36,831 bases of DNA from Candidatus Bathyarchaeota archaeon B63 (GTDB taxonomy: Archaea; Thermoproteota; Bathyarchaeia; Bathyarchaeales; DTEX01), in assembly GCA_001593845.1 (NCBI GenBank), contig LUCF01000004.1, positions 1 through 36,831 of the forward strand. Direction: 5' to 3'. Shown here one piece after another: positions 4,130-36,831 of the stretch. The translations under genes and the position numbers were made by a program. Under the pieces are notes generated by a model that had not been told where the DNA came from, did no database searches, and was given only the letters and a program-made list of their open reading frames with translations. Within the stretch, counting starts at the first letter, position 1. Every line of letters starts with the position of its first letter.

Positions 4130-4645
4130 ATCTCTGGAGGGGAGACGGCTTGAGGTCGAGATCAAGGAAAACATAACTAAGCTCAGAATCACAGTCGAGA
4201 CTTAATTAAGCGGCAATGTTGCCTCCCATCCCGTGAATCTCTAATCCTGCCTTTAGAATGAGGCTTCTCCTCGTATCCCCAATAGATCTTTGTAAAAACA
4301 ATTATGAAAAATTTTCAATTAGATTTTTATTTAGACATGGAACCTCATGGGATGAGTTTCGATAGAAGGCTCTGAAAGCCCCTTAGGGCATAATACGCGG
4401 AGAGATCCTGAATGTTCCCATATGTAAGACGAGAAAGTACTGAGAAGCAGAGTCATGGCCACAGCGGGTGGTGAGGCGGCTGGATCATGGACTCATAGCC
4501 CGCTCAGACCTTACCGGTCCAGATTCTCGGCTGATCTCAGAAACCCATTATGGATGAGCCGTCAGCCTGTCTGGAAGCCGGGCGATAGGAACCTGTATAT
4601 TGTTGTATTTGAGAATTTTTAGATGGATATGAGGGAGGGCTCACC

Positions 4646-6319
4646 ATGAAGGTGGCGATGGCTCAGATAAATTCGACAGTCGGCGACCTCAAGGGGAACA
4701 TCGAGAAGATAAAGGAATACATGGGGAAGGCGAAGGATCTCGAAGCCGACCTCGTAGCCTTTCCTGAGATGGCGGTCACCGGCTACCCGCCCCAAGACCT
4801 GCTTTATGAAAGGGCCTTCGTGAGGGAGAACAAGAAGGCACTTGAAGAACTCATTAAAAGTAATGATTCTGAGATCGTGGGGGTCGTCGGCTTCGTCGAC
4901 TACGACGATGAAGGTAACCTCTACAACGCCGCCGCGATCTTCAAAGGAGACGAGATCGTCGGAACGGCGTATAAGACCCTCCTGCCCACCTACGACGTCT
5001 TCGATGAGGACAGATACTTCAAGCCGGCGAGGGAGGAGGACATCAGGCCGGCGAGGGTGGAGATGGGCGGGAAAGAGGTCAACCTGGGCGTTGAGATATG
5101 CGAGGACCTGTGGGACGAGGGATACGAGATCAAGGTGACCGACCTCCTCGCTGAGAGGGGAGCCAACCTGATCGTTAATGTCTCCGCATCCCCATTCCAC
5201 GCAGGGAAGAGATTCGAGAGGGAGCATCTGCTGAGGGAGAAGGCTGTCAAAAATAGGGTTCCCATCTTCTATGTGAACCTCGTCGGAGGCCAAGACGAGC
5301 TAGTCTTCGACGGCCAGAGCCTAGCCGTGGATGCGTCAGGTAACCTCATAGCGTTCGCCAAGCAGTTCGAAGAGGACCTCGTGATCACCGACATCGACCT
5401 GGAGAGGGGCGTGGCTCCGAGGGTTGATCCCCCACCCTACAACAGGGAGGAGGAGATGTTCAATGCCCTGGTCTTGGGGGTCCGCGACTACTTCAGGAAG
5501 ACGGGATTCAAGAAGGCCGTAGTCGGGATGAGCGGCGGAATAGACTCTTCGCTTACGACATGCATAGCGGTTGAGGCCCTGGGCAGGGAGAACGTTATAG
5601 GGGTCTCGATGCCCTCCAGATTCTCCAGCGAGCACAGTAAGACCGATGCGGAGAGGCTTGCCAAGAACCTCGGGATATGCTTCGTCCGTTTCTCCATAGA
5701 GGATATTGTTGAGAGCTACAGAAGGACACTGGAGGAGCCGCTGGAGAAGATACGGAGGCACTTCGGCATAAGTAAGGAGAGGGACGACCCGGTCGCCGAT
5801 GAGAATATACAGCCCAGAATAAGGGGGAACTGCCTCATGGACATCTCAAATAGGCTGAGGGATCTGAGGATACTCGTGCTTAACACGGGGAACAAGACGG
5901 AGCTCGCGCTTGGCTACTGCACCCTGTATGGGGACATGACCGGGGGGATCGGGGCTCTCGGGGACGTAAGCAAGCTCGAGGTCTACAAGCTCGCAGAGTA
6001 CGTGAACAAGAAGGCCGGCAGGGAAGTGATACCGAAAAACGTATTCAGGAAGAAGCCGTCGCCGGAACTCAAGGAGAATCAATATGACCCATTCGACTTC
6101 AGCATAGTCAGCCCGCTCGTAGACGAGATCATCGAGAACCGCAGGGGAAAGCAGGAGTTGATAGAGATGGGGTACCCAAAGGAGACTGTCTTGGACATCT
6201 ATGGGAGGGTCAGGAGGGCAGAGTACAAGAGGCGGCAGGCGCCCCCCTACATAAAGATAACCCGGAAGGCCTTCGGCATAGGGTGGAAGATGCCGATAGT
6301 CAACAAGTACGACGGATAA
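4646..6319 (+). CDS. nadE: glutamine-dependent NAD+ synthetase (CN-hydrolase glutaminase domain + PP-loop synthetase domain)
   Basis: 557 aa. The N-terminal nitrilase-type triad contexts are FPEMAVTGY, AYKTLLPTYDVFDE and GVEICEDLW. The C-terminal half has VVGMSGGIDSS (PP-loop) and LNTGNKTELALGYCTLYGD. GAGGGAGGG precedes the ATG. Confidence 0.93.
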   Translation: MKVAMAQINSTVGDLKGNIEKIKEYMGKAKDLEADLVAFPEMAVTGYPPQDLLYERAFVRENKKALEELIKSNDSEIVGVVGFVDYDDEGNLYNAAAIFKGDEIVGTAYKTLLPTYDVFDEDRYFKPAREEDIRPARVEMGGKEVNLGVEICEDLWDEGYEIKVTDLLAERGANLIVNVSASPFHAGKRFEREHLLREKAVKNRVPIFYVNLVGGQDELVFDGQSLAVDASGNLIAFAKQFEEDLVITDIDLERGVAPRVDPPPYNREEEMFNALVLGVRDYFRKTGFKKAVVGMSGGIDSSLTTCIAVEALGRENVIGVSMPSRFSSEHSKTDAERLAKNLGICFVRFSIEDIVESYRRTLEEPLEKIRRHFGISKERDDPVADENIQPRIRGNCLMDISNRLRDLRILVLNTGNKTELALGYCTLYGDMTGGIGALGDVSKLEVYKLAEYVNKKAGREVIPKNVFRKKPSPELKENQYDPFDFSIVSPLVDEIIENRRGKQELIEMGYPKETVLDIYGRVRRAEYKRRQAPPYIKITRKAFGIGWKMPIVNKYDG

Positions 6320-6406
6320 GCAGGCGAGCAGGCAGCTCCCTTCCCTGAGTTCTCAGCCGGAAGAATCGGCCTGTAAAGCCGTAAAATAGAATGGGTCAGA
6401 AAAAGG

Positions 6407-7927
6407 TTAGGCGGGTTCATTCACCTTCTTGCCGGTCTTCTCTGTCCATTCCCTGATCGGGACGGCGAACTGCTTCTCAACCCTCTCCCTGTGGATGCTA
6501 TTGTACGTGCAGAAGGCCCTGAGCTTCCCATCCGGCGTCGCGTAATGTATCGCGCACCTCTGAACCCTGTCGAGGTCCATGTTCCAGACATCCTGGAAAT
6601 GCATTATCCCTATCATTATGACCTTATACATTAGAGCCCCCAGAGCCTTGATGCTCCCCCTCCTCACGATGCCCTTCAGTATGTCCCGGAAGAGATCAGA
6701 CTTTATTATGGGCAGGAACTTCAAAGCCTCCGCCTTCGCCCTCGCCTTCTTCCCCCTCACCCCATGATAATAGATGCTCCAGAAGACCTCAGCGAACCTG
6801 TCAACATCCACATGTCTGGTTATTGGAGAGTACGAGTCCTCCTCGATCACTATGAATGTTGAGGCCCCACACATCGGGTGCATCGTGAACTCCGGGTACA
6901 TCCGTCCCTTAAGGATCTCCATCCCCCTTGCGATTGGGACAGGCCAGTTCACGGGCCTCCAGTCCTTAACGTGTATCCGCCCGCCCGTCTGCTCCTCGAT
7001 GAGCCTGATGGCATCGGGGACCGTGATCCTCAGCCTCCTCATCTGCTCCTTCTGGGCTCTCCCAGCCATCGAGATCGGCTGGATGTTGACGCATCTTATA
7101 ATGTCTGAGTTCTCCACGGCGAACTCGATTATCTCCCCCAGGTCCCTGTCATTGACGCCCTTTGCCAGGGTGACGACCAAGACTATCGATCTTAGGCCTA
7201 TCTCCCTCGCGTTCTCCAGAACTCTCTTCTTGATCGGTATGAGGCCCCTTCTCCCCCTCAGCTTCTCATAGATCTCCTCTCTCAAGCCGTCGAACTGAAG
7301 GTATATCGTGTTCAAGCCCGCCTTGTAGAGGCTCCGGAAGTACTCTATGTCCTCAGCCAGCCGTATCCCATTCGTGTTCACCTCGACATGCTTGATCCCG
7401 GCCTTCTTAGCCTCCATGACTAGGCCCGGCAGGTCATTCCGGAGAGTAGGCTCACCGCCGCTGAACTGGAGAGCGTTACAGGGCCATGGGCTGTTAGACC
7501 TGAAGACCTTTATCATCTCAACTATCTGATCGTAGGTAGGCTCATAAACATAATTCGCCGCCCCAGCATAGGCGAAGCAGATGGGGCATGCCATGTTACA
7601 TCTGTTTGTGACGTCGATTATGCCAAGGATCGTGCTGGACTTATGTTGGGGGCACAATCCGCAGTCGTAGGGACATCCATCCTCAACCTTGGTATGCGGC
7701 TCTTCAACTCCTGAGCCCAAGTACTTGGCGGAGTTCCACTCCTTGTAGAACCACTTGTAAAGCTCAGCGTCGCCCCAATAGACATCCTCGAACCTCCCAT
7801 GCTCTGGGCATTCCTTCTCCAGGTATATCACGCCGTCCTCCTCATAGATCCTCATCGGCACCCTTCTCAAGCATTCCGGGCATATGCTGGTAGAGTAAGC
7901 CTCAAACTCGCCTTCCCGCTTCATCAT
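6407..7927 (-). CDS. multi-cluster radical SAM enzyme, tetraether lipid synthase (Tes / GDGT-MAS, MJ0619)-like
   Basis: 506 aa. N-terminal rubredoxin-like CPEC...CPEHG, then CPYDCGLCPQH (auxiliary cluster), then the radical SAM CNMACPICF (CX3CX2C). FSGGEPTL is also present. The architecture matches my recollection of the MJ0619 family. The radical SAM call is secure. The Tes assignment is inference. Confidence 0.6.
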   Translation of the reverse strand: MMKREGEFEAYSTSICPECLRRVPMRIYEEDGVIYLEKECPEHGRFEDVYWGDAELYKWFYKEWNSAKYLGSGVEEPHTKVEDGCPYDCGLCPQHKSSTILGIIDVTNRCNMACPICFAYAGAANYVYEPTYDQIVEMIKVFRSNSPWPCNALQFSGGEPTLRNDLPGLVMEAKKAGIKHVEVNTNGIRLAEDIEYFRSLYKAGLNTIYLQFDGLREEIYEKLRGRRGLIPIKKRVLENAREIGLRSIVLVVTLAKGVNDRDLGEIIEFAVENSDIIRCVNIQPISMAGRAQKEQMRRLRITVPDAIRLIEEQTGGRIHVKDWRPVNWPVPIARGMEILKGRMYPEFTMHPMCGASTFIVIEEDSYSPITRHVDVDRFAEVFWSIYYHGVRGKKARAKAEALKFLPIIKSDLFRDILKGIVRRGSIKALGALMYKVIMIGIMHFQDVWNMDLDRVQRCAIHYATPDGKLRAFCTYNSIHRERVEKQFAVPIREWTEKTGKKVNEPA

Positions 7928-15442: not shown

Positions 15443-15578
15443 GCTGAGCTGTCCTAAAGGAGGCCAGCGGCCCATCAGAGAGGCTGGAACGCGGTAAATC
15501 TTTTTAAATCACGACTTATTTTAGAAACATGCATCAGCATCCACCCCCGGGAACAAAAGCGTTAAGAGCTGGGATTGA

Positions 15579-16409
15579 GAGACGAGGACGGCCGCTGGTT
15601 TAATCGGCTGCGGATCGATAGGCTCTGTAATAGCGAAGGCGATCGACACCGGAGAAGCCGGGGACGTCACGTTAGAGGCTCTCTATGACGTCTCCCGAGA
15701 GTATGCGGAGAGACTCGCGTCCTCCCTATCCAGGAAGCCCCGCGTCGCCGAGAACGTTGATGAGCTCCTCGGGAACGATAAGATCCAGCTGGTCATCGAG
15801 GCTGCATCACAGGAGGCGGTGAGGCAATACGCCGTTAAGGCCCTATCGAGGGGGAAGGACCTCATGGTCCTGAGCACGGGCGCCCTCCTCGACGATGACC
15901 TATTAAAGGAGATATCAAGAATCGCGGAGGAGAAGGGCAGGAAGGTCTACATCCCCTCCGGCGCCATAGTCGGCCTGGACAATGTGAAGGCTGCCGCCGT
16001 GGGCCCTGTTGAGGAGGTAACCCTCATAACGAGGAAGCCGCCTGAGAGCTTTGAGGGGGCGCCTTTCATGGCTGAGAGGGGGATCAAGCCGTCGGAGATA
16101 GATAGGCCCACCGTCCTGTTCGAGGGATCAGCAAGGGAGGCTGTGAGGCTCTTCCCCAGAAACGTGAATGTCTCTGCCTCCCTGAGCCTAGCTGGGATCG
16201 GGGCTGACAGGACGAGGGTCAAGATAATCGCCGACCCGAATGTGAGGAGCATCATCCACGAGATCCACGTGAGGGGAGAGTTTGGGGAGATGATGATGCG
16301 GACTGTGAACAAGCCTTTCCCTGAGAACCCGAAGACCAGCTATATAGCCGCCCTCTCCGCGATCGCAACCCTAAGAAAGATAAGCGGAAGCATAATCGTG
16401 GGAACATGA
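15579..16409 (+). CDS. nadX: L-aspartate dehydrogenase; the 5' end is anomalous (no canonical start codon upstream of the Rossmann motif)
   Basis: The track ORF (GTG 15819) is only the C-terminal 196 aa. The same frame is open back to a TGA at 15576-15578 and encodes AAGLIGCGSIGSVIAKAID... (GxGxxG). FPRNVNVSASL and FPENPKTSYIAALSAIATLR match the TM1643-type enzyme. There is no ATG/GTG/TTG in frame between 15579 and 15818. Confidence 0.8.
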   Translation, partial: ETRTAAGLIGCGSIGSVIAKAIDTGEAGDVTLEALYDVSREYAERLASSLSRKPRVAENVDELLGNDKIQLVIEAASQEAVRQYAVKALSRGKDLMVLSTGALLDDDLLKEISRIAEEKGRKVYIPSGAIVGLDNVKAAAVGPVEEVTLITRKPPESFEGAPFMAERGIKPSEIDRPTVLFEGSAREAVRLFPRNVNVSASLSLAGIGADRTRVKIIADPNVRSIIHEIHVRGEFGEMMMRTVNKPFPENPKTSYIAALSAIATLRKISGSIIVGT

Positions 16410-27216: not shown

Positions 27217-28753
27217 CTATGCCTGAGCGCTAAGGGCCCGCTGAGCTCGATGATGGATTCCCGAAGCCGGGTGTAGAGCCCCTTCTTCAGCATCACCAGC
27301 TCGCCTCTCTGTGAAGAAGAACCTTGTCTGACCCATAGTCTTCACGTCGAGCGGCCTTATCTTCACTACGATCGGGAAGTCCTTCACCATCCTCCCAAGG
27401 AGTAGGCAGTGGTGGGGGGGCAGGTCGCGGACTATGGATGTGATTGTCTCAGCATCCGCCCTTGCGGCCCTCGCGATTATCTGGAGGTCATGCTCATTCA
27501 CGAAGTTCAGCAGGAATATGTTATCCGCCTGACGGTAGATGTTCTCGTGGATCGTGTTCGGCTGGTTCGTGATGAATGTTGTGAAGAGCCCGAAGTGCCT
27601 CATCCTCGTGACTATGTCGTCCCAGTATGTCTCCTTCAGGTATAGGTGAGCCTCCTCAGCGAAGAGGAAGACGGCCCTTATCTTCCACTGCGAGAGGGCG
27701 TCCTGAAGCTTCGCCAGGACGTACTCCCATCCTCCGGTCAGATGGGGAAGTACCACTTAGATCTATGACTATGGCGCCGCCTCCTCCCCTCTCAGCCTTG
27801 CGGAGGAGACCCTCGAAGTCAGTCGCCTCAGCCATGTTATCCGTGAAGAAACCGGAGTTGAGGAGGGCTGAGTAACGCGAGTAGAGCGCATCCTTCACAT
27901 GCTGGTTGCACTTCCAGTTCTGGATAGCCTCCCCCAGACCATGAAGGGTGAGCCTCCCCCTCTTCTCAAGGAACCTCCATATCTGCCGGAATTCCCGGGC
28001 TGAGGTTCCGGGAAGCCCAAGAGCGTATGTGAGGGTCCTCATGATCACGTAGAGCTCAGTCTGATACAATGTGACCTTGAAGCTCCTCCCCGGGGTTAGT
28101 ATGCGGATCTTGCCGTGATACCTATTCTTTGAGCCGTCCTTGCCGTATCCGAGATTCGTATACTCGCCGTTTATGTCTAGGATGACGACGACCGCCCCAT
28201 AATCGATGAGGCTCAAGACCAGCAGCTTAGAGAGGTGAGACTTACCAGTCCCTTTCTTCCCCGTTATTATGTTCAGCTTTCCGTCCAGCTGAAGGGCATC
28301 AACTGCGAGGGGGAAGGAGTCCTGCGTCTCCCCGAGCCTTATTGGAAGGCCCCCATCCATATCCGCCATCTCAACGAGAGACTCGGTCGGGAGCTTACAT
28401 ATCGTGGAATTCATCCTGGATGGGAGCCAAGAATTCTCCTGCCTCAGCTCACCGTTCATTATCGTACCATGGATCTTGCAGATCAGCAGACGGGCATCCT
28501 GAATGTACAGTATATGAGATGTTATGCCGAGTGGGTCTTCATCCTCGCCGCTTAATGAGTCCCCAGCATCAGAGGATCGGAGTAGCTCCTCCATCACCCC
28601 GGGGACATTAGCGAACTCTATGTCTATCACCTGAGCTATCATTGCCTTGTCTGCCTTCCGATCCCTTATGAGCAGGTACTCGCCCTTCTCAACTTCCTCG
28701 CCTGGGAAGCTCAGAATATGCAGTGTATTACCGGCTTTCCTGAAGAGCCTCAT
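27217..28753 (-). pseudogene. herA: HerA-like FtsK/HerA-superfamily ATPase (HAS-barrel + DUF87 ATPase), split by one frameshift into the track ORFs 27656-28753 and 27217-27756
   Basis: The upstream ORF has an N-terminal HAS-barrel-like segment, Walker A ITGKKGTGKSH, VVILDINGEY (the HerA D-x-x-GEY motif) and AIVIDLSG. The downstream ORF, in the +1 frame, continues with VFLFAEEAHLYL (Walker B) and FITNQPNTIHENIYRQADNIFLLNF. The frames meet at a C4 run (plus-strand GGGG 27744-27747). Removing one C gives a continuous 511-aa protein. Confidence 0.85.
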
Positions 28754-28756
28754 CGC

Positions 28757-29845
28757 TTAGTCTCCCAGCCTAACCCCGTAGGGCCCAAAGAGGGTCCGAT
28801 GCATGTTAACTCTCGAGACGAGCCTAAGCCCGTACCTCTTGATCATGAACCGCTGTATGCCGATGACCTCCGTCGCCGTGAATGTGGAGTATATATGCGC
28901 CAGACGCAGGGTCTCCGGGTACCCCTGATAGAGCAGCTCGTTACCAAGCAGCCTCTCCACGGCCGTTATGCTCTCCTCCCTAGATATGGATCTATCAATA
29001 TCCAAGCGGAACGCGCAGCCCCCACTCGCCAACCTCGCAACGTAGATCCTCCCGAGGGGCCGAGTGGAAGCCGACGAAGAGAGCGGGAGAGAATCGATCT
29101 CGAATAAGCATGGCGGCCGATAACCATCAACGAGGTCTGTTATCCTCCAATCCAGAAACCTCAAGGTTGTATCCTTAGAGAAGCCCATGATTATATTTGA
29201 GTTCCGCCTAGCCGCCTTAAGTATCTCTGAGACCCCCGCGGCTGGGCTTCCTGGGACCCCTGCGGTTAGGGAGCCATCCCAGAGGATTATGCATTCCCTC
29301 ATGAGGTGGGAGACGCATAACTGAAGCCATCTCTCTATGAGGCTGCAGAGCCTGGTTTGCTGCTCCGTCTGCGGGAGAGCGGAGAGGCTCAGGTCGAGGG
29401 CCTCATTCATCTCCCTCGAAGCCCCATTTAGGCTTCTTCTTGTTACGTGAAACGTGAATGGGCCGAGACGGAGATATCGATACCCCTCATTCGTCCTCGT
29501 CACTATGGCTCCCCTCACGGCGTAGACCGCCCCCAAATCGGTTGTCCCCACCCTGATGGTTGAGACATCTATCCCTGTTATTGTGGTCCCGTCCCTGATC
29601 GGCCTCAGGGGAATCAGCAGAGTCGAGGCCATCCTGCCCCGTAGAGATTCCAGGTCTTTATCGTGCTCACCATTCAAGAAGGGCTCTGGGAGCTCCGTGT
29701 TGTCCAGCTGGAAGGGCCTTCCCTTGACCATATGCATGGAGTTTAGGCTTAATTCCATGATCTTATGGGAGAGGCTCGTCCACTTTGGGGTGAGTGGAAA
29801 ATTATATTTTGATGTTGTTTCATAGTGTAACTGCCCAATCAACAA
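28757..29845 (-). CDS. nurA: NurA-like 5'-3' nuclease
   Basis: 362 aa. ITGIDVSTIR (the GIDGS-type Asp), LIERWLQ (Glu), CIILWDGSLTAG (DGSL motif), IIMGFSKDTT, and GYPETLRLAHIYSTFT (the GYPY-x-L-x-x-A-H/D type). Its stop is 3 nt before the herA ATG. The start is TTG at 29845, or a later ATG at 29755. Confidence 0.75.
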   Translation of the reverse strand: MLIGQLHYETTSKYNFPLTPKWTSLSHKIMELSLNSMHMVKGRPFQLDNTELPEPFLNGEHDKDLESLRGRMASTLLIPLRPIRDGTTITGIDVSTIRVGTTDLGAVYAVRGAIVTRTNEGYRYLRLGPFTFHVTRRSLNGASREMNEALDLSLSALPQTEQQTRLCSLIERWLQLCVSHLMRECIILWDGSLTAGVPGSPAAGVSEILKAARRNSNIIMGFSKDTTLRFLDWRITDLVDGYRPPCLFEIDSLPLSSSASTRPLGRIYVARLASGGCAFRLDIDRSISREESITAVERLLGNELLYQGYPETLRLAHIYSTFTATEVIGIQRFMIKRYGLRLVSRVNMHRTLFGPYGVRLGD

Positions 29846-29986
29846 TATTCACCAATTTGCAAATCTGTGGTGATGTTGTATATAAATGTTGTGCATGCGC
29901 AAATTGCACAATAAAAATCAACAATATACTGAGGCGCCAAACGGGTAAAAGAACCCCGGCAAAGGCATAAAGAACGTGAGGGTAAG
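29846..29986. promoter_or_regulatory. divergent promoter/operator region between nurA-herA and the wHTH/DUF523 operon
   Basis: Central TATATAAA (29879-29886, usable in either orientation). Perfect palindrome ATTTGCAAAT (29855-29864). Inverted repeat TTGTGCA-N9-TGCACAA (29889-29911), whose spacer contains ATGCGCA. An 11-bp direct repeat ATCAACAATAT occurs at 29838-29848 and 29917-29927. Confidence 0.6.
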
Positions 29987-30403
29987 ATGGCGAGGCCTGA
30001 AGGCGGAAAGGACGAAGGAAACGTCCGAATAAAAATGAAGGTCGGAAACGTAGAGTTCGAGATAGAGTGCCGGGAGGACCGGATACAGCAGGTGATCGAG
30101 AAGGTCCTCTCAACAGTGACGGAGCACATGAAGAGGACGGCCACCCCAATCGGCGAGGCTGAATACCCAACAGGCAAGGCTGAGACATGCCGGGGGATAG
30201 TTGAAAGGCTCTGGAAGGAGGGGTTCTTCGCTGAGCCCCGTTCACTCAGTGAGGTGCATGAGGAGATGACGCGGATAGGCTACCATTATGATAGGACGGC
30301 CGTGGCTCACGTCCTGCTCGACCTCGTCAGGGACGGGGTCTTAACGCGGGAGGGGAAACCGCGGAGATACGTGTACGTCCAGAAACGCCCACCAACCGCT
30401 TGA
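29987..30403 (+). CDS. small DNA-binding protein: N-terminal beta-hairpin/helix module + C-terminal winged helix; divergent paralogue of 31019-31504 and 31505-32020
   Basis: 138 aa. VRIKMKVGNVEFEIECREDRIQQVIEKVL aligns without gaps with the N-termini of the other two proteins. The C-terminal part, LSEVHEEMTRIGYHYDRTAVAHVLLDLVRDGVLTREGKPRRYVY, is wHTH-like. GAGGG precedes the ATG. Confidence 0.65.
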   Translation: MARPEGGKDEGNVRIKMKVGNVEFEIECREDRIQQVIEKVLSTVTEHMKRTATPIGEAEYPTGKAETCRGIVERLWKEGFFAEPRSLSEVHEEMTRIGYHYDRTAVAHVLLDLVRDGVLTREGKPRRYVYVQKRPPTA

Positions 30404-30996
30404 TGGATAAGACGGGAATGGAGGCTGACCTGTTGAGGAACGGGGAAGCCCCGGAGGATCTTTGGATAATCGTTCTTTCCCACTGCATCCTCAACCGGGC
30501 GACGAGGTGGTGGCAGAGGGGAAAGCCCCTAGATGACAGCCGGGGGATGGCCTCCCAGATCCTCGAATTACTCTCAGGTCTACAAATCGGCGTAATCCAG
30601 ATGCCGTGCCCGGAGTTCACCTTCTGCGGTAACCCACGGCCACCCAGAACGATGGATGAGTACCTGAGTCTTCCTGGCTTCCGAGATCACTGCGCGAGGC
30701 TGGCGGATGAGACGGCTGAGTATCTTAAGAGCCTCATCGAGAACGCCCGGGAGCCACGGATCAGAATCCTAGCGATCCTAGGGGTTGAGCGGTCCCCCAC
30801 ATGCTGTGTTGAATATGCACCTGTCGGGGACGGGGCGGAGAAGCGATACGAGAGAAGAAGGGGAATCTTCATTGATCTGCTGGTTAAAAGCCTAAGGGAC
30901 AGGGGAATAGAGGTGCCGGTCATCGGGGTCGACCTTAACAGGCCTGAGGAATCAGCCTCGATGATCCTCGATCTTATAAGCAGGCATAAGCCATAA
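30403..30996 (+). CDS. DUF523 / TudS-like [4Fe-4S] protein (thiouracil desulfidase family)
   Basis: Three Cys-motif contexts match my recollection of DUF523: VLSHCILN (cf SACLLG), MPCPEFTFCGNPRPPRT (cf PVCPE..GGLPTPRPP) and VERSPTCC (cf ERSPSCG). ATG 30403 overlaps the upstream TGA (TGATG), which suggests translational coupling. The track ORF starts 3 nt earlier, at TTG 30400. Confidence 0.6.
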   Translation: MDKTGMEADLLRNGEAPEDLWIIVLSHCILNRATRWWQRGKPLDDSRGMASQILELLSGLQIGVIQMPCPEFTFCGNPRPPRTMDEYLSLPGFRDHCARLADETAEYLKSLIENAREPRIRILAILGVERSPTCCVEYAPVGDGAEKRYERRRGIFIDLLVKSLRDRGIEVPVIGVDLNRPEESASMILDLISRHKP

Positions 30997-31018
30997 TGCC
31001 TGATGGAATGATTCAGGC

Positions 31019-31504
31019 TTACTTCCAGTATTCCCCGATGAGCGATTCTGTCCTCCTTATTCCGAGGGTCGTTAACCTATACTCCCCATCAGTCGTCCTC
31101 TCGATCAGCCCATCTGAGATGAGCCTCGGAACCTCGTTAGAGACCGTTTTACGTGCCTTACCGATGATCCTCGCAAGGTCCCTCGTGGAGAGGGAGTCCC
31201 GGGGGAGCTTCCCCAATGCCTTTCCGAGATAAGCCCCCAGAAGGGCCAAGCATATCGCGTCTCTTGCGGGGACATCCAGATCGGGCGGCAAGATCGGGCC
31301 ATCTTGGGTTATCTCGACGAGCCCCTCAACCCCCCGGGCGAGGCTGATCACATCCGGCGTGTATATTATCCTTTGGAGAACCTCAAGTCCGGGACAGATC
31401 TGCGTGAGGAACTTCATGGTTAACTCGATGACCTCATCCACGTCTCCCTCGAAGTCAGCCTTGGCCTCGCCGAATTCTATGCGGACCTTCAGCTTCTCAC
31501 CCAA
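31019..31504 (-). CDS. winged-helix protein with N-terminal beta-hairpin/helix module; paralogue of 31505-32020
   Basis: 161 aa. LKVRIEFGEAKADFEGDVDEVIELTMKFL, VEGLVEITQDGPIL, and the C-terminal wHTH LSTRDLARIIGKARKTVSNEVPRLISDGLIERTTDGEYRLTTLGI. Its TTG start directly abuts the TAA stop of the upstream paralogue. Confidence 0.7.
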   Translation of the reverse strand: MGEKLKVRIEFGEAKADFEGDVDEVIELTMKFLTQICPGLEVLQRIIYTPDVISLARGVEGLVEITQDGPILPPDLDVPARDAICLALLGAYLGKALGKLPRDSLSTRDLARIIGKARKTVSNEVPRLISDGLIERTTDGEYRLTTLGIRRTESLIGEYWK

Positions 31505-32020
31505 TTATGCCCCTTCCCCAGCCTCGATTTTTGGCAGAACCTCATCGAGGAAGTTCTTTATCCCGAGGGTCGTTATCCTGTATTCTCCCCGCCCCACCCT
31601 CTCAACCCAGCCTGAGCTGACAAGCTCGCTTAGGCGAGCGGCAACCGTGCTGGACTTCACCCCGATGAGCGATTTTATCTCGCTGCTCGCGAGTGTATCC
31701 TTATCTAACCTCCCCGTTCTGTGTCCTATGTACGCCTTGATGAGGTGGAGCATGATGGCGCCTTTATCCCCGCCCAGCCTCTCCTTAGAGACCGTGACAA
31801 CCGGGCCTTCAGGGGTGAAAGCTATTATCCCCTCCACGTTCTCTATGAGGCCCTCGAGGTCCACCGTTAGGGTGATCTTGGATGCGAGGTCAAAGGCGGG
31901 GAGGATACGTTGTACGAACTTGAGGAGCACCCTAACCACTTCCTCCGGCTTACCGCGGAACCTCAATTCGAGATCCCTATACTTTGCATATACTTCTAGG
32001 AGATCTCCTTCACCTTCCAA
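31505..32020 (-). CDS. winged-helix protein with N-terminal beta-hairpin/helix module; paralogue of 31019-31504
   Basis: 171 aa. LEVYAKYRDLELRFRGKPEEVVRVLLKFV, VEGIIAFTPEGPVV, and LASSEIKSLIGVKSSTVAARLSELVSSGWVERVGRGEYRITTLGI. The TTG start is preceded by AAGGAGG with a 7-nt spacing. Confidence 0.7.
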   Translation of the reverse strand: MEGEGDLLEVYAKYRDLELRFRGKPEEVVRVLLKFVQRILPAFDLASKITLTVDLEGLIENVEGIIAFTPEGPVVTVSKERLGGDKGAIMLHLIKAYIGHRTGRLDKDTLASSEIKSLIGVKSSTVAARLSELVSSGWVERVGRGEYRITTLGIKNFLDEVLPKIEAGEGA

Positions 32021-32348
32021 GCAGCAGCCTCCTTAACCATCCCTTCACGTGAGCTCTTCTCCGCCGCATGGGCTATGCTACCCGTGATGGACAAGTCATC
32101 CGTGCAGGCACGGCGATCATACATGAGTATATCTATGTATATTAAAAGATTTGCCGCTTAGGAAGTAAAGCCTCTTATTTGGAGATCAATTATGAGCAGG
32201 CCTTCGTGAGTCAGCCTAAAGACCGTGTGACACCGTCGAAGATCAAAAGGAGAAGGCATAGCGAGACTCCGCCTGAATACTGAGCATCCCCCTATTTTTC
32301 CATGCGTTCCCTCCCACGTTTATAGGAGATGTACATAAGTACTTCTTG

Positions 32349-32377
32349 AATGCGCAGAAATGCGCATACTTTATAAA
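32349..32377. promoter_or_regulatory. orphan TATA box abutted by twin AATGCGCA boxes
   Basis: AATGCGCA occurs at 32349-32356 and 32359-32366 (10-bp phasing), immediately followed by TTTATAAA at 32370-32377. There is no supported CDS within about 250 nt on either side. The same ATGCGCA heptamer lies in the nurA/wHTH operator (29895-29901). Confidence 0.45.
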
Positions 32378-32628
32378 GGAAAAATTTCCTGGCAGGAGGA
32401 CCATTTGAGACGGAATAGAGACAAAAAACTTTCCAGGGACATACAAGGTACGCTTAATAATAAAGAATCAGGATCAAGATCACCGAAGAAAAAAATCAGC
32501 ATCAAAGCGCGTAGAGCGGAGGGTCCGCCTAATCGGCTGCTGACATTCTGCTTAAGGGAATTGTTCGGTCCCATAGAAAAGGCGCAATTTCTCTTCAGGC
32601 TGGGACCCGGTTGATCGTGTACGGTTCT

Positions 32629-33633
32629 TCACTTGTAGAACCATTCTATCGGTATTATCTTCAATCTCAGGGACTTATGGTCACAATAATACGTTATAAG
32701 CGCCTCGTCTCCTACGAACGTCACGCTTGGGTATGCATATGTCTGGCTCTCATCAGCCTCTATGTCCTTAAAGTTCTCCCATGTCTCTCCCTCATCATGT
32801 GAAACCGCCGCTGTTAAGGGAACCCTCCTCGGACCCCTCGTATGATTCCATATAAGAAGCAAGTCGCCGGTCTTGGGTATACGTTTGATCGTCTGGGGCG
32901 AGCGGGGCGAGATGACATTCATCGATTCCGGTTTAGACCAAGTCTCACCGCCATTCGATGAGTAGGCCCTGTATACATGGCCTAAGCTGGTTCTCATCCA
33001 CATCATAACCCTGCCGTCCTCAAGCTCAATGACCCCGGGCTCCTCAGCTGTGGACCCCGGCAGGAGTGATACCTCACCTCTGCTTCTGTACCATGTTCGG
33101 CCGTTATCATCCGAGTAGAAGCATACTGAGACAAGTTTGGAGCTCACATGGATGTTCGGGGTGAAGGCTGCTGGGAGAAGTATCCTCCCACTTGAGAGCT
33201 GTATCGCCCTATCATTGTTAAGGGTGAAGTAGCCTGGGTGAAACTTAGCCACAGGAACAATCTCGCTCCAGGATTCCCCTTCATCATAGGATTTCCTCAT
33301 GTAGGGATGGCAATCGGACCCCGAATTTTTTATGCAGAAAAAGAACGCGATCTCACCAGTCTGGAGCCTAAGAAAGTCTGCCTCCATGACGTTCATGACG
33401 CCTATGTTCTCCTGGATCGTGAAGGGTTCACCCCAGCTCCGCCCCCTATCCCAGGAGATCTTCCCAGAGATCCTAGCCGGGGAGAAGTCGCTTCCGCCGT
33501 AACAATAGAACTCTGTCCACCCAAGCAGTAAACGGCCATCCTTTAACTCTATTATGTCAGCCTCAGTGTTTCTTGGGTTCCTCTCGGAGGATGGGCAGAC
33601 CGTCAGGCTGAAGATCTCCGCATCAACCATCAT
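32629..33633 (-). CDS. BNR/Asp-box repeat beta-propeller, sialidase (GH33)-like, no signal peptide
   Basis: 334 aa with five Asp-boxes (SWDRGRSW, SYDEGESW, SDDNGRTW, SSNGGETW, SHDEGETW). The N-terminus is not hydrophobic. Confidence 0.8.
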   Translation of the reverse strand: MMVDAEIFSLTVCPSSERNPRNTEADIIELKDGRLLLGWTEFYCYGGSDFSPARISGKISWDRGRSWGEPFTIQENIGVMNVMEADFLRLQTGEIAFFFCIKNSGSDCHPYMRKSYDEGESWSEIVPVAKFHPGYFTLNNDRAIQLSSGRILLPAAFTPNIHVSSKLVSVCFYSDDNGRTWYRSRGEVSLLPGSTAEEPGVIELEDGRVMMWMRTSLGHVYRAYSSNGGETWSKPESMNVISPRSPQTIKRIPKTGDLLLIWNHTRGPRRVPLTAAVSHDEGETWENFKDIEADESQTYAYPSVTFVGDEALITYYCDHKSLRLKIIPIEWFYK

Positions 33634-33667
33634 GACTCACCATCCTGAAGGGAGGCCAAAGGAATAT

Positions 33668-34774
33668 TTATTTGATCCCGTATTCCCTGATGATCCCGCC
33701 GACCATCCGGACCTTCTCGATGCTTCCATCAGGCGGCAGCATATCTGAGATTCCGACTATGATGTTCGGGCTGAAGGTATCGAGGAGCCTAATCACGAAT
33801 CTTCTCAGCTCACCATCGCTGATGTGGGGTAGGAAATGAGTCGCAGGTATCCCATCTATCAGGACCTTACCTCTAAGGGCCTCCTTGAGCTCCTCCAGCG
33901 TCACGTTCCCCTGCGGGATGGGAGGAACGCATTCCAAGGCGTCTAGGCCGGTCTCCGGGAAGTATGGTAGGAGCCTCTTTATCTTCCCGTCCCAGTGTGA
34001 AGTGCAGTACTTCCCAGCTTGATGGAGCTCCCTCGTCCTCCGCTTATAGTATGGGATCATGTACTTCTCGAATAGGGGAGGGGAGCATAAGCCCTCATCG
34101 ATGTTGTCGCCGAAGTTAACAATCCTGAACGGCGTCTTCCTTATCAAGGCGAACCTCTCATCATCATTCTCATCGAAGACCATGAGGAGATCCTCGACCT
34201 CCTTTCTATGCTTCCAGAGGGCGATCACCCCCCTCTGAAATCCCATGTAGACTATGAAGAACCTCTGGATTGAGCCCCACGGAACTGTGATTAACGGTTC
34301 AGAACGTTCTCCGAGAAGCCTCTCCATCTCGTCATAAAGGTCCTTATCGAAGATGAAGCTCTGGTTTCTCAGTATGTACTTGAGCACCTCGAAGTCCCTG
34401 ACGCCCTTCAAGAAGTAACTGATTCTTAGGCTCGCGGTTCCATACTCGGTTCTCCTCTCGATCTGCGTTAGGCTTCCCTTCGGGGTCACATACTTCGTGT
34501 AGATGTAGCTCTCATCCACCTTCCTCTGGAGCTTAACCCCTTCCCCCTCGACAACCTTCACTGTATCATTAAAATAATGGTAGGCGCGGGGGGAGGCATC
34601 CAGATCATCATATATCGCCAGTAGATCAAAGCCTTCATACTCCCTGGGGAGGGTGCCCCTCGCCTTATTCACGTCGTACCAGTGGTGAAGCCTCGGCTGC
34701 CACAGCAGACGGTCCGGCCTTCTATGCTCGAAGACCGCCATTGTCCGCTCCCGGTTATTCATGCCCTCCATCAC
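33668..34774 (-). CDS. uroporphyrinogen decarboxylase (URO-D) family protein, second paralogue in the window
   Basis: 368 aa. NNRERTMAVFEHRRPDRLLW at the N-terminus. TSHWDGKIKRLLPYFPETGLDALECVPP parallels HTDGYIEPIIEDLVKTGINGLHSIEP of 18642-19775. It lies 34 nt upstream of the BNR gene. Confidence 0.7.
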   Translation of the reverse strand: MMEGMNNRERTMAVFEHRRPDRLLWQPRLHHWYDVNKARGTLPREYEGFDLLAIYDDLDASPRAYHYFNDTVKVVEGEGVKLQRKVDESYIYTKYVTPKGSLTQIERRTEYGTASLRISYFLKGVRDFEVLKYILRNQSFIFDKDLYDEMERLLGERSEPLITVPWGSIQRFFIVYMGFQRGVIALWKHRKEVEDLLMVFDENDDERFALIRKTPFRIVNFGDNIDEGLCSPPLFEKYMIPYYKRRTRELHQAGKYCTSHWDGKIKRLLPYFPETGLDALECVPPIPQGNVTLEELKEALRGKVLIDGIPATHFLPHISDGELRRFVIRLLDTFSPNIIVGISDMLPPDGSIEKVRMVGGIIREYGIK

Positions 34775-34815
34775 GTCGAGTTCCGAGTTGAGGTTTTAAG
34801 GAGCTAATTACTAAC

Positions 34816-34844
34816 TTATATATGGAAACCATTTATCAATTGAT
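34816..34844 (+). promoter_or_regulatory. ino1 promoter: TATA box plus a 10-bp palindrome over the predicted transcription start
   Basis: TTATATAT at 34816-34823. The perfect palindrome ATCAATTGAT at 34835-34844 ends 3 nt before the TTG start (34848), so the mRNA would be essentially leaderless. Confidence 0.45.
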
Positions 34845-34847
34845 AGG

Positions 34848-35918
34848 TTGGTGAACCGTTTGCCTAAGATCCGGGTCGGCCTAGTAGGCGTGGGGAACTG
34901 CGCCTGTGCATTGGTGCAGGGCGTCGAATATTATAAGAACATCAGGAGCGAGGAGGAATGCGTAGGCCTGAGGCACCTGTACGTCGGTAAGTATCATCCC
35001 AGCGATATAGAGTTTGTCTGCGCATTCGACGTGACGGCTGGGAAGGTTGGGAAGGACCTCTCCGAGGCGATCTTCGAAAGGCCGAATAATACGCTGAGGT
35101 TCGCTGAGGTTCCCAAACTCGACGTTGAGGTTCTGAGGGGGCCTCTCCTCGACGGCATGAGCAAGTACGCCGGAGAGGTAGCTGAGGTAGACGATTCGCC
35201 TGAGGTTGATGTGGCCCAGAGCCTTAAAGAGAGCGGGGCCGAGGTCGTCGTCAACCTCCTTCCAAGCGGGGCTTCAGAAGCATCACTCAGATACGCCGAG
35301 GAATCCCTCAAGGCGGGTTGCGCATTCATTAATGCTACTCCGAACCTGATCGCGAGCGAGAGTTCATGGGCTGAACGATACGCGGAGGCTGGGCTTCCCA
35401 TAGTCGGCGATGACCTCACAGATCAGGTGGGAGCAACGTTCCTCCATAAGGTCCTGCTTGAGACCCTGAATAGACGGGGGGTTAAGGTCTCGAGGACCTA
35501 TCAGCTCGATGTTGGAGGGGGAACGGAGTCTGCTGATACGCTCAGCCGAGCTTGGGAAGTGAAACGTAGAATAAAGACGAAGTCGGTTATGTCCGTTCTG
35601 CCGTATGAAGCGGAGGTTGTCGCCGGGTCAACGGACTTCGTCGAGTTCTTGAAGAACAGCCGGGACAGCTACTTCCGTCTTGAAGGCCTGTACTTCGGCG
35701 GGGTCCCATTCAGCATGGATATAAAGCTCCAAACGGTTGACGCTCCCAATGCAGGCTCAGTTCTCCTCGACGTGATCCGCGGGGTCAAGATCGCCCTCGA
35801 GAGGGGAGACGCTGGACATGTCCTCCCAATATCAGCCTACGCCTTCAAGCATCCCGCCAAGATCCTACCGCTCCTCGAGGCGGATGAGCTATTCGAGAAG
35901 TACATAACTGAAGCTTGA
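34848..35918 (+). CDS. ino1: myo-inositol-1-phosphate synthase, short archaeal/bacterial type
   Basis: 356 aa. RVGLVGVGNCACALVQGVEYYK NAD-binding N-terminus, and PIVGDDLTDQVGAT. Size and motifs fit archaeal MIPS. Confidence 0.85.
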   Translation: MVNRLPKIRVGLVGVGNCACALVQGVEYYKNIRSEEECVGLRHLYVGKYHPSDIEFVCAFDVTAGKVGKDLSEAIFERPNNTLRFAEVPKLDVEVLRGPLLDGMSKYAGEVAEVDDSPEVDVAQSLKESGAEVVVNLLPSGASEASLRYAEESLKAGCAFINATPNLIASESSWAERYAEAGLPIVGDDLTDQVGATFLHKVLLETLNRRGVKVSRTYQLDVGGGTESADTLSRAWEVKRRIKTKSVMSVLPYEAEVVAGSTDFVEFLKNSRDSYFRLEGLYFGGVPFSMDIKLQTVDAPNAGSVLLDVIRGVKIALERGDAGHVLPISAYAFKHPAKILPLLEADELFEKYITEA

Positions 35919-36018
35919 AGCTTCATTCCCCTCCAGTAAGGATTGAACGTCCCCCGGGAAGGGGCATCCCACAATTTCCCGCCGAGGCTATCAAAATGAC
36001 GTGTGATGATGGTGATTC

Positions 36019-36831
36019 GTGAGTCCCCCGAAACGGCGCGTCGGGATATCCATAGCGATCCCCGCGTCCCTCGTATCCGACGTCCCCCACCTCCGGGAGA
36101 AGACGCTCAGGATAGGCATGATCGGCCGGGCGCTCGCCATCTTCCGCGTAGACGAGGTAATAGTATATCCAGACATCCCAGGCAGAGATCAGAGGAGAGA
36201 CGCCTCGCTGATCAGGGCCATCCTCTCATATATGGAGACCCCTCAGTACCTTAGACGGCGGCTCTTCAAGATCAGGCCTGAGCTCCGCTTCGTAGGCATC
36301 CTCCCACCCCTCAGAACCCCCCATCATCCAACGGAAAACAGGGAGAGGCAACTAAGGATCGGGGAGTATAGGGAGGGGGCCGTCATATCCTCAGATGAGG
36401 GAGGCGCCTACGTCGATATAGGCGTAGAAAGGCCTATCTTCATGCCCAACGCCGAACTGAAGACAGGCTCAAGAGTCACAGTCAAGATAAAGAAGAAGGG
36501 GAAACTCCTCATCGGAGAAATAGCGGACCCAGAGGAACTCGAGGTTTACTGGGGATACAAAGTCAAGATCTCAGGTTACCCGCTCAGCAATCTGCTCAGG
36601 GACCCGAGATACAGCCTCGTAATCGCCACCTCCCGACGCGGCGTCCCCATCATGAAGCTCGCGGATGAGATGATGGATAACTGGAGAAGCGCGAGGCGGG
36701 TGCTCATCGCCTTCGGCTCGCCGACCCAGGGGCTCCACGAGATCATCGCCCAAGAAGGCATCGAACTCGAAACCTTGACGAACTTCATCGTGAATACCGT
36801 TCCAAACCAGGGAGTTAAGACTATCCGAACA
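36019..36831 (+). CDS. SPOUT-superfamily putative RNA methyltransferase (DUF171 / COG2106-like), 3'-truncated by the window end
   Basis: It is absent from the ORF track because it has no stop in the window. GTG 36019 follows an in-frame TGA at 36013-36015. The frame reads MSPPKRRVGISIAIPASLVSDVPHLREKTLRIGMIGRALAIFRVDEVIVY...LVIATSRRGVPI...RVLIAFGSPTQGLHEI and stays open for 271 codons to 36831. The track ORF 36003-36254 is in another frame and looks spurious. Confidence 0.6.
   Translation, partial: MSPPKRRVGISIAIPASLVSDVPHLREKTLRIGMIGRALAIFRVDEVIVYPDIPGRDQRRDASLIRAILSYMETPQYLRRRLFKIRPELRFVGILPPLRTPHHPTENRERQLRIGEYREGAVISSDEGGAYVDIGVERPIFMPNAELKTGSRVTVKIKKKGKLLIGEIADPEELEVYWGYKVKISGYPLSNLLRDPRYSLVIATSRRGVPIMKLADEMMDNWRSARRVLIAFGSPTQGLHEIIAQEGIELETLTNFIVNTVPNQGVKTIRT

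Follow-up and report, generated by a model that had tools for sequence, protein, structure and literature searches.

Little is understood of how archaea regulate their homologous-recombination genes, and to our knowledge the known archaeal regulators of the DNA-damage response (Orc1-2, TFB3 and Csa3a) all come from Sulfolobales. In Sulfolobus islandicus, stand-alone nurA-herA operons exist beside the classical cluster, and Csa3a, a winged-helix regulator, binds imperfect palindromes at nurA-herA promoters, including that of the stand-alone pair (PMC5587795). TudS and RudS enzymes, to which another product of the locus described here is related, desulfurize thiouracil, 4-thio-uridine monophosphate (4-thio-UMP) and the 4-thiouridine (s4U) of tRNA (PMC10611767, PMC11417400). 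The present work concerns a nurA-herA pair in a 36.8-kb stretch of DNA from Candidatus Bathyarchaeota archaeon B63 (the window, i.e. the whole stretch that was analyzed), together with three neighboring genes whose names, w138, w171 and w161, are coined here, and a gene of the DUF523 family. The region had drawn attention in an earlier reading of the letters alone (the original prediction). What is new here is the w138 protein, an uncharacterized, predicted winged-helix partner that accompanies a divergent though canonical NurA-HerA pair throughout the class, together with a candidate operator that can be sharply delimited. The class, which is abundant among archaea and uncultured, thus strictly conserves the pairing of a small predicted DNA-binding protein with nurA-herA. 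The core of the locus comprises the following features.

27217..27756, minus strand: 3' part of herA, in the +1 frame, with Walker B (FLFAEEAH) and the C-terminal domain; ~27301-27726 is conserved with relatives
27656..28753, minus strand: 5' part of herA, with the N-terminal domain and Walker A; its tail past ~27727 is out of frame
28757..29842/29845, minus strand: nurA, with two adjacent TTG starts, of which the second (29842) is likelier; its stop ends at 28757
29987..30403, plus strand: w138, 138 amino acids, predicted β-hairpin, helix and winged helix; candidate dedicated nurA-herA regulator
30400/30403..30996, plus strand: DUF523 / TudS-related putative [4Fe-4S] desulfidase, 198 amino acids; its start overlaps the w138 stop

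Linkage of w138 to nurA-herA

The window proteins were compared by tblastn and clustering of open reading frames (ORFs) over 80 loci from 80 Bathyarchaeia species genomes, which were retrieved with the NurA alignment (NurA identity 42-66%). The locus is present in all 80 of these genomes and its neighbors are housekeeping genes (gatDE, tRNA synthetase, M42 peptidase and pyrE), with the flanking M42 peptidase and aminotransferase genes kept in close relatives. Among the loci with at least 650 nt of upstream flank, w138 lies divergent from, and directly upstream of, nurA in 75/75, and the pairing survives every rearrangement of the neighborhood, which takes five context types. Because the linkage of w138 is absolute, whereas those of DUF523 and w171/w161 vary, the core of the locus is w138 on one side and nurA-herA on the other. 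The original prediction had proposed that co-occurrence of the small proteins with nurA-herA be checked in other genomes, and w138 passes this check in each of the 75 loci. Its broader idea, a family-specific set of DNA-binding proteins wired to nurA-herA, is upheld for w138, which is accompanied by an operator-like element, but not for w171 and w161, which track gatD-gatE.

Both genes of the pair are identified by domain match. NurA matches Pfam NurA (PF09376) at 23.3 bits as compared to a cut-off of 21, over profile positions 2-249 of 254, and its homologues (n = 1661) are mostly from Bathyarchaeia, many of them with a precomputed PF09376 match. Candidates for the acidic residues and histidine of an RNase-H-like catalytic site, namely D92, E170, D189, D281/D283 and H316, are invariant in an alignment of 20 sequences; solved NurA structures gave no sequence match through which these residues could be mapped, and their order would fit the D-E-D-H pattern of Pyrococcus NurA. 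The herA gene starts at 28753, 3 nt past the nurA stop, and the central domain of its product matches Pfam DUF87 (49.2 bits for the 5' part in the window and 57.7 bits for the intact orthologue in L002). GKS (Walker A) and FLFAEEAH motifs are visible in the HerA sequence, its C-terminal part is matched by PADLOC and NCBIfam HerA models, and the intact orthologue finds its best PDB match in Sulfolobus solfataricus HerA (4d2i, E 7e-11). By these matches nurA and herA are genes for a NurA-domain nuclease and a HerA-type ATPase, whose activity and complex formation are predicted. The 3-nt coupling and the lack of flanking mre11/rad50 reported in the original prediction agree with the ORF coordinates and with a gene survey of the window, as mre11 and rad50 were sought over the entire 36.8 kb and neither was found. 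The gene identities it gave also stand, but herA is not a single ORF, as it carries a frameshift at ~27727.

In the window, herA is split into an ORF at 28753..27656 and a second at 27756..27217 in another frame. The break corresponds to a 5-nt gap at ~27727, where the window reads ATGG|GAGTAC and its relatives ATG GTN GTN GAG TAY; a lesion at a CCCC run, common to contig L001, was ruled out by this mapping against relatives. The HerA of relatives is in one frame (..SPSDRQM-VV-EYVLAKL..), with tblastn matching residues 1-344 and then continuing in frame, and the gene is continuous in 71 of 72 other genomes, encoding a protein of ~485-490 amino acids. No other assembly has a record of exactly this truncated HerA product. 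L001, an 8.3-kb hydrothermal-vent metagenome contig that is 99.8% identical to window positions 27727-36025, leaves the window sequence exactly at the lesion and ends 2 nt beyond it, with bases (..ATGGTC) that fit the intact frame. The sole other interruption among the 72 loci is in L044 (8784-10326), where herA appears to be split into 346 + 152 amino acids with a gap of ~165 nt. Elsewhere in the window (15570-15830), the aspartate dehydrogenase gene (nadX) upstream of ORF 15819-16409 has an apparent 1-nt indel near its start: the Rossmann N-terminus (..GLIGCGSIG..) lies in the frame of the ORF without a start codon, and a TTG start (15575) lies in the neighboring frame. Given the nadX indel and the L001 bases that fit the intact frame, an assembly or strain artifact is plausible, and the herA lesion may be a strain variant (polymorphism) or an assembly error.

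Ten of the 80 loci place the pair in a familiar setting. There herA is followed by an antisense NUDIX gene and then by genes for proteins of 400 and 695 amino acids, the first of which is Mre11 (PDB 3auz, E 2e-27; NCBIfam Mre11 models) and the second Rad50 (PDB 5f3w, E 5e-32; CPLC zinc hook). Because mre11-rad50 follow herA in these genomes, nurA-herA would be the normal end-resection set of the lineage, and it looks to be inherited vertically across the class, in housekeeping neighborhoods. Among the refuting conditions listed in the original prediction was a pair that is the only copy and groups with canonical repair HerA/NurA; the mre11-rad50 neighborhood and the Sulfolobus HerA match largely bear out the grouping.

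The spacer between w138 and nurA

The divergent spacer contains four features that are conserved across the loci.

29849..29853, minus strand: nurA Shine-Dalgarno sequence GGTGA, within the conserved ATTGGTGAAT; immediately ahead of the nurA start codon in virtually every locus
29879..29886, no strand assigned: single symmetric TATA box, TTTATATA in the nurA direction; consensus TTTA[A/T]ATA
29887..29911, minus strand: operator-like element TTGTGCA-ATT-TGCGCA-TGCACA-ACA, with three TGNNCA boxes abutting the transcription factor B recognition element (BRE) and TATA box
29912..29935, minus strand: ATTG repeats, which most genomes have as TATTG x3, conserved at positions -34 to -18; predicted w138 5' leader

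The palindrome-bearing, 141-bp divergent control region described in the original prediction is thus present; it measures 141-144 bp in the window, depending on which of the two adjacent nurA TTG starts is chosen, and holds palindromes and a TATA box. Across the loci the w138-nurA spacer is 80-140 bp long and can be aligned in all of them despite the divergence of the proteins. In the nurA direction it consists of ATTG/TATTG repeats, three TGNNCA boxes, CAACA at the BRE position, the TATA box, ~25 variable bases, ATTGGTGAAT and the start codon. The boxes are spaced 9 and 6 bp from start to start, and the last is always TGC[A/G]CA. About 45 bp of the spacer are near-invariant: between -34 and +12, most positions carry 1.5-2.0 bits of information (76 sequences), and in the TATA box, which occupies +5 to +12 of the alignment, each position is either invariant or W in the 76 loci. 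A single TATA box is probably common to both divergent genes. In the window, a perfect 12-nt direct repeat, AATCAACAATAT, is found at 29837-29848 (over the nurA start codons) and at 29916-29927 (in the ATTG-repeat part).

The element is as restricted in its location as it is conserved in sequence. There is one copy per locus, and its single match in the window compares with 0.02 expected by chance. A metagenome search with the exact 19-nt core, including the TATA box, returned at least 120 matches; among the 120 listed, 111 are at w138/nurA junctions (92 with both genes flanking and 19 with whichever gene fits on the contig), and the other nine are unrelated low-GC sequences without boxes that look like chance. 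The operator/TATA core was sought upstream of mre11, and a TGNNCA-type operator upstream of the w171 operon, and each was absent there. A regulon extending beyond the locus was rejected because the core is absent upstream of mre11 and the nine off-junction matches are unrelated, as judged from a search tied to the core including TATA. The mre11-rad50 promoter region has a conserved motif of its own, approximately CTCT[CT]A[CT]ACTTAAAAG, which is unlike the nurA operator (L022, L025, L031, L033, L059, L069, L077 and L079).

The pattern of variation within the boxes favors a site for a protein over an RNA or DNA hairpin, as their NN positions do not co-vary for complementarity (12 observed vs 9.9 expected, p = 0.28). 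A hairpin was therefore ruled out as the operator, on this result together with an Rfam scan of the window that gave no match. The element forms a perfect 26-bp palindrome (TTGCGCATCTTGGCCAAGATGCGCAA) in three of the genomes, as would be expected of a site for a dimeric binder.

Candidate roles of w138

NCBI lists an identical copy of w138 (AYL33_000750) under Candidatus Bathyarchaeota archaeon B63. The w138 family comprises 1158 members without a Pfam match, and those named by their source are all labelled hypothetical, with one exception, 'sirohydrochlorin ferrochelatase'. Residues C28, C68, H91, H100 and H108 are invariant in w138, and none of the 73 orthologues departs from [FY]HYDRTAV[AS]H in the predicted recognition helix. 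In its AlphaFold model, a β-hairpin, a helix and a linker precede a winged helix (three helices plus wing, residues 68-115 plus the wing) that is predicted with a local distance difference test score (pLDDT) of 82-91; the β-hairpin/winged-helix fold that the original prediction assigned to both types of small protein is seen in the AlphaFold models of each. The search of w138 against the Pfam winged-helix families (MarR, ArsR, PadR, BlaI, TrmB and HVO_A0261_N) gave Penicillinase_R as the best score, at 17.4 bits with a cut-off of 22.6. Its weak fold matches are DNA-binding domains (RTP, Fur and ArgR). A likeness of the N-terminal hairpin-helix to the Lsr2 dimerization domain was considered and dropped, as the Foldseek matches were weak and not significant.

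We consider it fairly probable that the native end-resection genes nurA-herA have in w138 a dedicated winged-helix regulator, one that probably also regulates itself. The invariant recognition helix of w138 is matched by an invariant DNA element, which supports w138 as its reader; we infer that w138 binds DNA, and likewise how it would act on transcription, which signal it would answer and what part, if any, the DUF523 protein would play. In the proposed mechanism, a w138 dimer would occupy the three TGNNCA boxes and might contact the ATTG repeats as well. The boxes abut or partly overlap the BRE/TATA of nurA-herA and would cover the predicted start region of the w138 transcript; if the single TATA box also drives w138, they would lie between it and the predicted w138 transcription start. 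The simplest outcome of binding would be repression of both units, w138 itself included (autoregulation), until a signal releases it, with activation as a possible alternative, and the two invariant cysteines and three invariant histidines may sense that signal, which could be redox, a metal or something related to damage. The TudS-related Fe-S enzyme would be co-transcribed with w138, and fall under the same control, in roughly one lineage in three, that of the window among them.

A profile search with w138 over 1.84 billion representative proteins yielded 400 matches at E <= 1e-3, three of which are proteins of 479-550 amino acids in which a w138-type winged helix forms the C-terminus, behind a HerA/FtsK-superfamily P-loop ATPase and a coiled coil. 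These fusions (P0445, P0416 and P0444; located at L088 1640-3079, L089/L090 8001-9500 and L091 5684-7336) have the winged-helix framework C-x3-[ILV]-x2-LW-x-EG-[WF]F..P[RK] in common with w138, whereas their recognition helices differ from that of w138 (NYNAPTISATL and others). P0445 scores 39 bits with Pfam DUF87 and 67 bits with PHROG 2666 'terminase large subunit'. The contigs look viral or mobile-element, as the neighboring genes are small unannotated ORFs, HNH nucleases and a DNA methylase. A wider and more tentative proposal, which we hold to be possible rather than probable, is that w138 acts as a class-wide switch that couples a Cys/His-sensed signal, possibly with the co-transcribed desulfidase, to the expression or loading of the end-resection machinery, and that its winged-helix module has been captured by archaeal viruses or mobile elements onto HerA-type ATPases of their own. 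If the class-wide-switch reading is true, w138 would be the first dedicated NurA-HerA regulator or adaptor known in any archaeon. The regulator hypothesis itself gives a likely role to a protein family of more than 1000 'hypothetical' members, and it can be tested directly without culturing the organism.

Several observations weigh against w138 as a dedicated regulator of a canonical pair. Its activity is read solely from position and conservation, the AlphaFold model of the whole protein is only moderate (pLDDT 70.7), and fold searches with Foldseek against the PDB and viral structures gave no significant match (E >= 0.38). The protein is more conserved than NurA, with a median identity of 61% vs 46% in the 80-genome comparison, which is unusual for a local regulator and would also suit a structural partner, and the ATPase fusions hint at a direct protein-level tie between the w138 winged-helix subtype and HerA-type motors. 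Since herA is frameshifted in the window, the operon may be non-functional in this strain. Finally, the HerA of Bathyarchaeia falls far short of all NCBIfam HerA equivalog cut-offs, with repair, CedD and antiphage models similarly low and, in one orthologue, the 'antiphage HerA' and CedD models slightly above the repair models; it is therefore mainly the NurA partner, along with the neighborhood of mre11-rad50, that justifies the label 'canonical'.

The points on conservation and fusions bear on the rival that survives best, in which w138 is a stoichiometric accessory subunit of HerA-NurA (for example, a DNA-end or loading adaptor that contacts HerA) and the spacer is just a strong shared promoter. 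Such a subunit would fit the one-to-one co-occurrence of w138 with nurA-herA and its conservation above that of NurA, but w138 is always divergent, never within the nurA-herA operon, and the ~45 bp of conserved non-coding DNA exceed what a BRE/TATA needs and contain dyad-symmetric boxes. The same winged-helix subtype is indeed fused to the C-terminus of HerA/FtsK-superfamily ATPases in P0445, P0416 and P0444; these, however, are of virus or mobile-element type, not HerA orthologues, and do not keep the invariant recognition helix of w138. We keep a subunit role as an unlikely rival.

Quite improbable, in our estimation, is a second rival, in which another factor, global or unlinked, binds the spacer element, the role of w138 is unrelated, and the two units merely share a bidirectional promoter. 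The link from w138 to the boxes is one that we infer, and Bathyarchaeia hold several paralogues of the superfamily (w138b, described below, and four w171-type genes), but an independent factor has to be reconciled with an element that is confined to the w138/nurA junction among the matches listed, with a gene pair that stays together through all five neighborhood context types, and with the invariance of both the DNA element and the recognition helix.

Variable neighbors and comparison with known systems

The other genes beside the core were taken in the original prediction as parts of one system with w138 and nurA-herA. Two junctions that it described are confirmed, the overlap of the DUF523 start with the w138 stop (TGATG) and the direct abutment of w171 and w161 (TAA-TTG). 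DUF523 is present in 24-26 of the 80 loci and lies directly downstream of w138 in 24 of the 80, in two different neighborhood types, and the tie that had been proposed holds in that DUF523 is a recurrent operon partner of w138. Its product scores 104.3 bits with NCBIfam TudS_rel_CD3072 (cut-off 130) and 23.3 bits with Pfam 2-thiour_desulf (cut-off 34.7), neither of which is reached; by these profile scores it is a related, divergent member of the TudS family. In its translation, cysteines that are candidate ligands of the [4Fe-4S] cluster occur in SHC, PCPE and SPTCC contexts.

The genes w171 and w161 and their promoter region are arranged convergently with the w138 operon.

31019..31504, minus strand: w161, a 161-amino-acid paralogue of w171, second of the tandem pair
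31505..32020, minus strand: w171, predicted winged-helix protein of 171 amino acids, first of the tandem pair
32100..32148, minus strand: w171/w161 promoter region, with a TATA-like TTTTAATATA at ~32138-32148 and the palindrome CCGTGCCTGCACGG at 32100-32113

The two proteins are clear paralogues (34% identity, E 8e-30). The w171 family has 243 members, apparently from Bathyarchaeia only (a few are labelled just Thermoproteota), and its AlphaFold model (pLDDT 86, and >90 in the winged helix) has an N-domain with a β-hairpin plus helices. Foldseek searches of w171 against the PDB and viral structures retrieved weak, generic winged helices of the MarR, Crp and AspA-like kinds (E >= 0.008), and the Pfam gathering score of HVO_A0261_N (35) is not attained by w171 (32.7) or by w161 (24.5). 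The original prediction had made all three small winged-helix proteins paralogues of one another, which is clear for w161 and w171 but holds for w138 at most remotely. By BLASTP, w138 has no similarity to either w161 or w171. With shallow profiles, hhalign aligned w138 to the w171 type at E 0.021, and after the addition of w138b and further w171-type paralogues the probability rose to 85% (E 5.7e-6, collinear over 109 columns). We conclude that w138 and w161/w171 have a common architecture and an origin that is probably common but remote. The w138b protein is a second w138-type paralogue, 24-28% identical to w138, that keeps the equivalent of C68 and has Ser or Gly in place of C28. Its gene precedes a w171-type pair in one operon, convergent on w138, in 12 loci (L022, L024, L025, L036, L041, L046, L047, L057, L060, L070, L071 and L079).

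The w171-type genes follow a different synteny from that of w138. Their tandem pairing is kept (66 proteins in 33 loci), and w171-family genes, nearly always as a tandem pair, occur within 10 kb of nurA in 32-33 of the 80 loci, with gatD-gatE just upstream of the module in ~20. In the B26-type genomes (L082-L087, ~4197-7020), four w171-family paralogues of 157-166 amino acids follow gatD-gatE, three of them as a tandem run, away from nurA; here they adjoin a lactate permease gene and a leucyl-tRNA-synthetase-like gene, or the rpl10/rpl1/rpl11-spt5-secE cluster. A functional tie of w171/w161 to nurA-herA was rejected, as the pair tracks gatD-gatE, lies far from nurA elsewhere and has promoters without the TGNNCA operator. 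We place the w171/w161 pair in a module of its own, mobile and linked to gatDE, which adjoins nurA-herA here through regional synteny and varies with the lineage. The original prediction had credited the pair with a promoter and palindrome of its own, and both are present; a 49-nt stretch of this region (32110-32158) is conserved in one close relative, L005.

Upstream of w171, a 608-bp non-coding stretch (32021-32628, GC 0.47, no Rfam match) extends to a BNR/sialidase-like gene. The 'orphan TATA' with ATGCGCA heptamers that the original prediction had placed here does exist, at 32350-32376, as TTTATAAA followed by the palindrome ATGCGCA-N4-TGCGCAT. It does not, however, match the full nurA operator even with 3 mismatches, and it is conserved only in the 99.8%-identical contig; a functional role was set aside on the strength of this operator mismatch and of a conservation confined to the same species.

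The remaining question is whether the locus serves defense. PADLOC, which the original prediction had suggested as a check, returned for the window partial generic HerA matches (E 3e-10 or weaker), a weak mad8 match and weak Csa3/AbiEi winged-helix matches, with no system-specific match and none for NurA, w138 or DUF523; the NCBIfam HerA_antiphage model gives 18-46 bits with a cut-off of 800. A known defense system was rejected because the PADLOC matches are generic only. Sir2, DUF4297 and other defense partners were sought at the locus, and none was found. The GC content of the locus is unremarkable, and the other genes of the window are metabolic or housekeeping (glutamine synthetase, NAD synthase, H+-pyrophosphatase, Trm1, RACo, aminotransferase, M42 peptidase and inositol-phosphate synthase). 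Thus, although the synteny of w138 with nurA-herA is real and that with DUF523 frequent, HerA-family ATPases occur in known anti-phage systems (with weak, partial PADLOC and NCBIfam antiphage HerA matches here), and TudS-family enzymes act on thiolated uracil and s4U (PMC10611767, PMC11417400), it is very improbable that the six genes form an undescribed defense or nucleic-acid-modification surveillance system with NurA-HerA as effector, the winged-helix proteins as sensors or recruiters and DUF523 as a sensor or enzyme for thiolated bases, given a class-wide, vertical-looking conservation in housekeeping contexts instead of variable islands, mre11-rad50 adjacent in 10 genomes, the lack of defense partners and of a system-specific PADLOC match, the presence of DUF523 and the w171 pair in no more than 24-26 and 32 of the 80 loci, and a w171 module that in B26-type genomes sits beside gatDE and ribosomal-protein genes, far from nurA. 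The claim that the locus resembles defense or surveillance 'rather than housekeeping repair' is accordingly not supported, as the vertical-looking, class-wide inheritance of the pair, the mre11-rad50 genes in 10 genomes and the 4d2i best match all point the other way, and a false lead, that of a new defense system, is removed.

The locus can now be set beside the systems it most resembles. The anti-phage HerA systems (Sir2-HerA and DUF4297-HerA) likewise pair a HerA-superfamily ATPase with a nuclease-type or effector gene, but the partner here is NurA and the locus is class-wide, not island-like. The DUF523 protein has three cysteines at motif positions typical of DUF523, putative counterparts of the cluster ligands of TudS; in contrast to RudS it has no DUF1722 domain, and its operon with a winged-helix gene beside DNA-repair genes is a context not reported for TudS (PMC10611767, PMC11417400). 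The gene arrangement recalls the divergent, autoregulated pairs of the MarR, ArsR and PadR families, in which a small winged-helix gene stands divergent from an operon with dyad boxes over the promoter in a short spacer. However, w138 has no significant sequence or fold match, its predicted N-terminal domain is distinct, and the promoter is of the archaeal BRE/TATA type.

Among described regulators of nurA-herA, Csa3a offers the nearest comparison. The winged helices of w161 and w171 weakly match the C-terminal domains of the PADLOC Csa3/CARF3 models (positions 140-191 of 194). Csa3a, however, has a CARF sensor domain, belongs to a CRISPR-cas locus and acts at many promoters (PMC5587795), whereas w138 has a predicted β-hairpin-helix N-domain without CARF, adjoins its presumed target and has its candidate element confined to that junction among the matches listed. 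The pair itself resembles the HerA-NurA(-Mre11-Rad50) system of Sulfolobus and Pyrococcus in that a nuclease gene is directly coupled to the gene for a HerA-type hexameric ATPase. It differs in that the Bathyarchaeal order is nurA then herA, with mre11-rad50 either detached or beyond an antisense NUDIX gene, in that its NurA (just over the Pfam cut-off) and HerA are very divergent, and in that the pair is accompanied by a constant divergent winged-helix partner gene, a feature not described for the classical operon.

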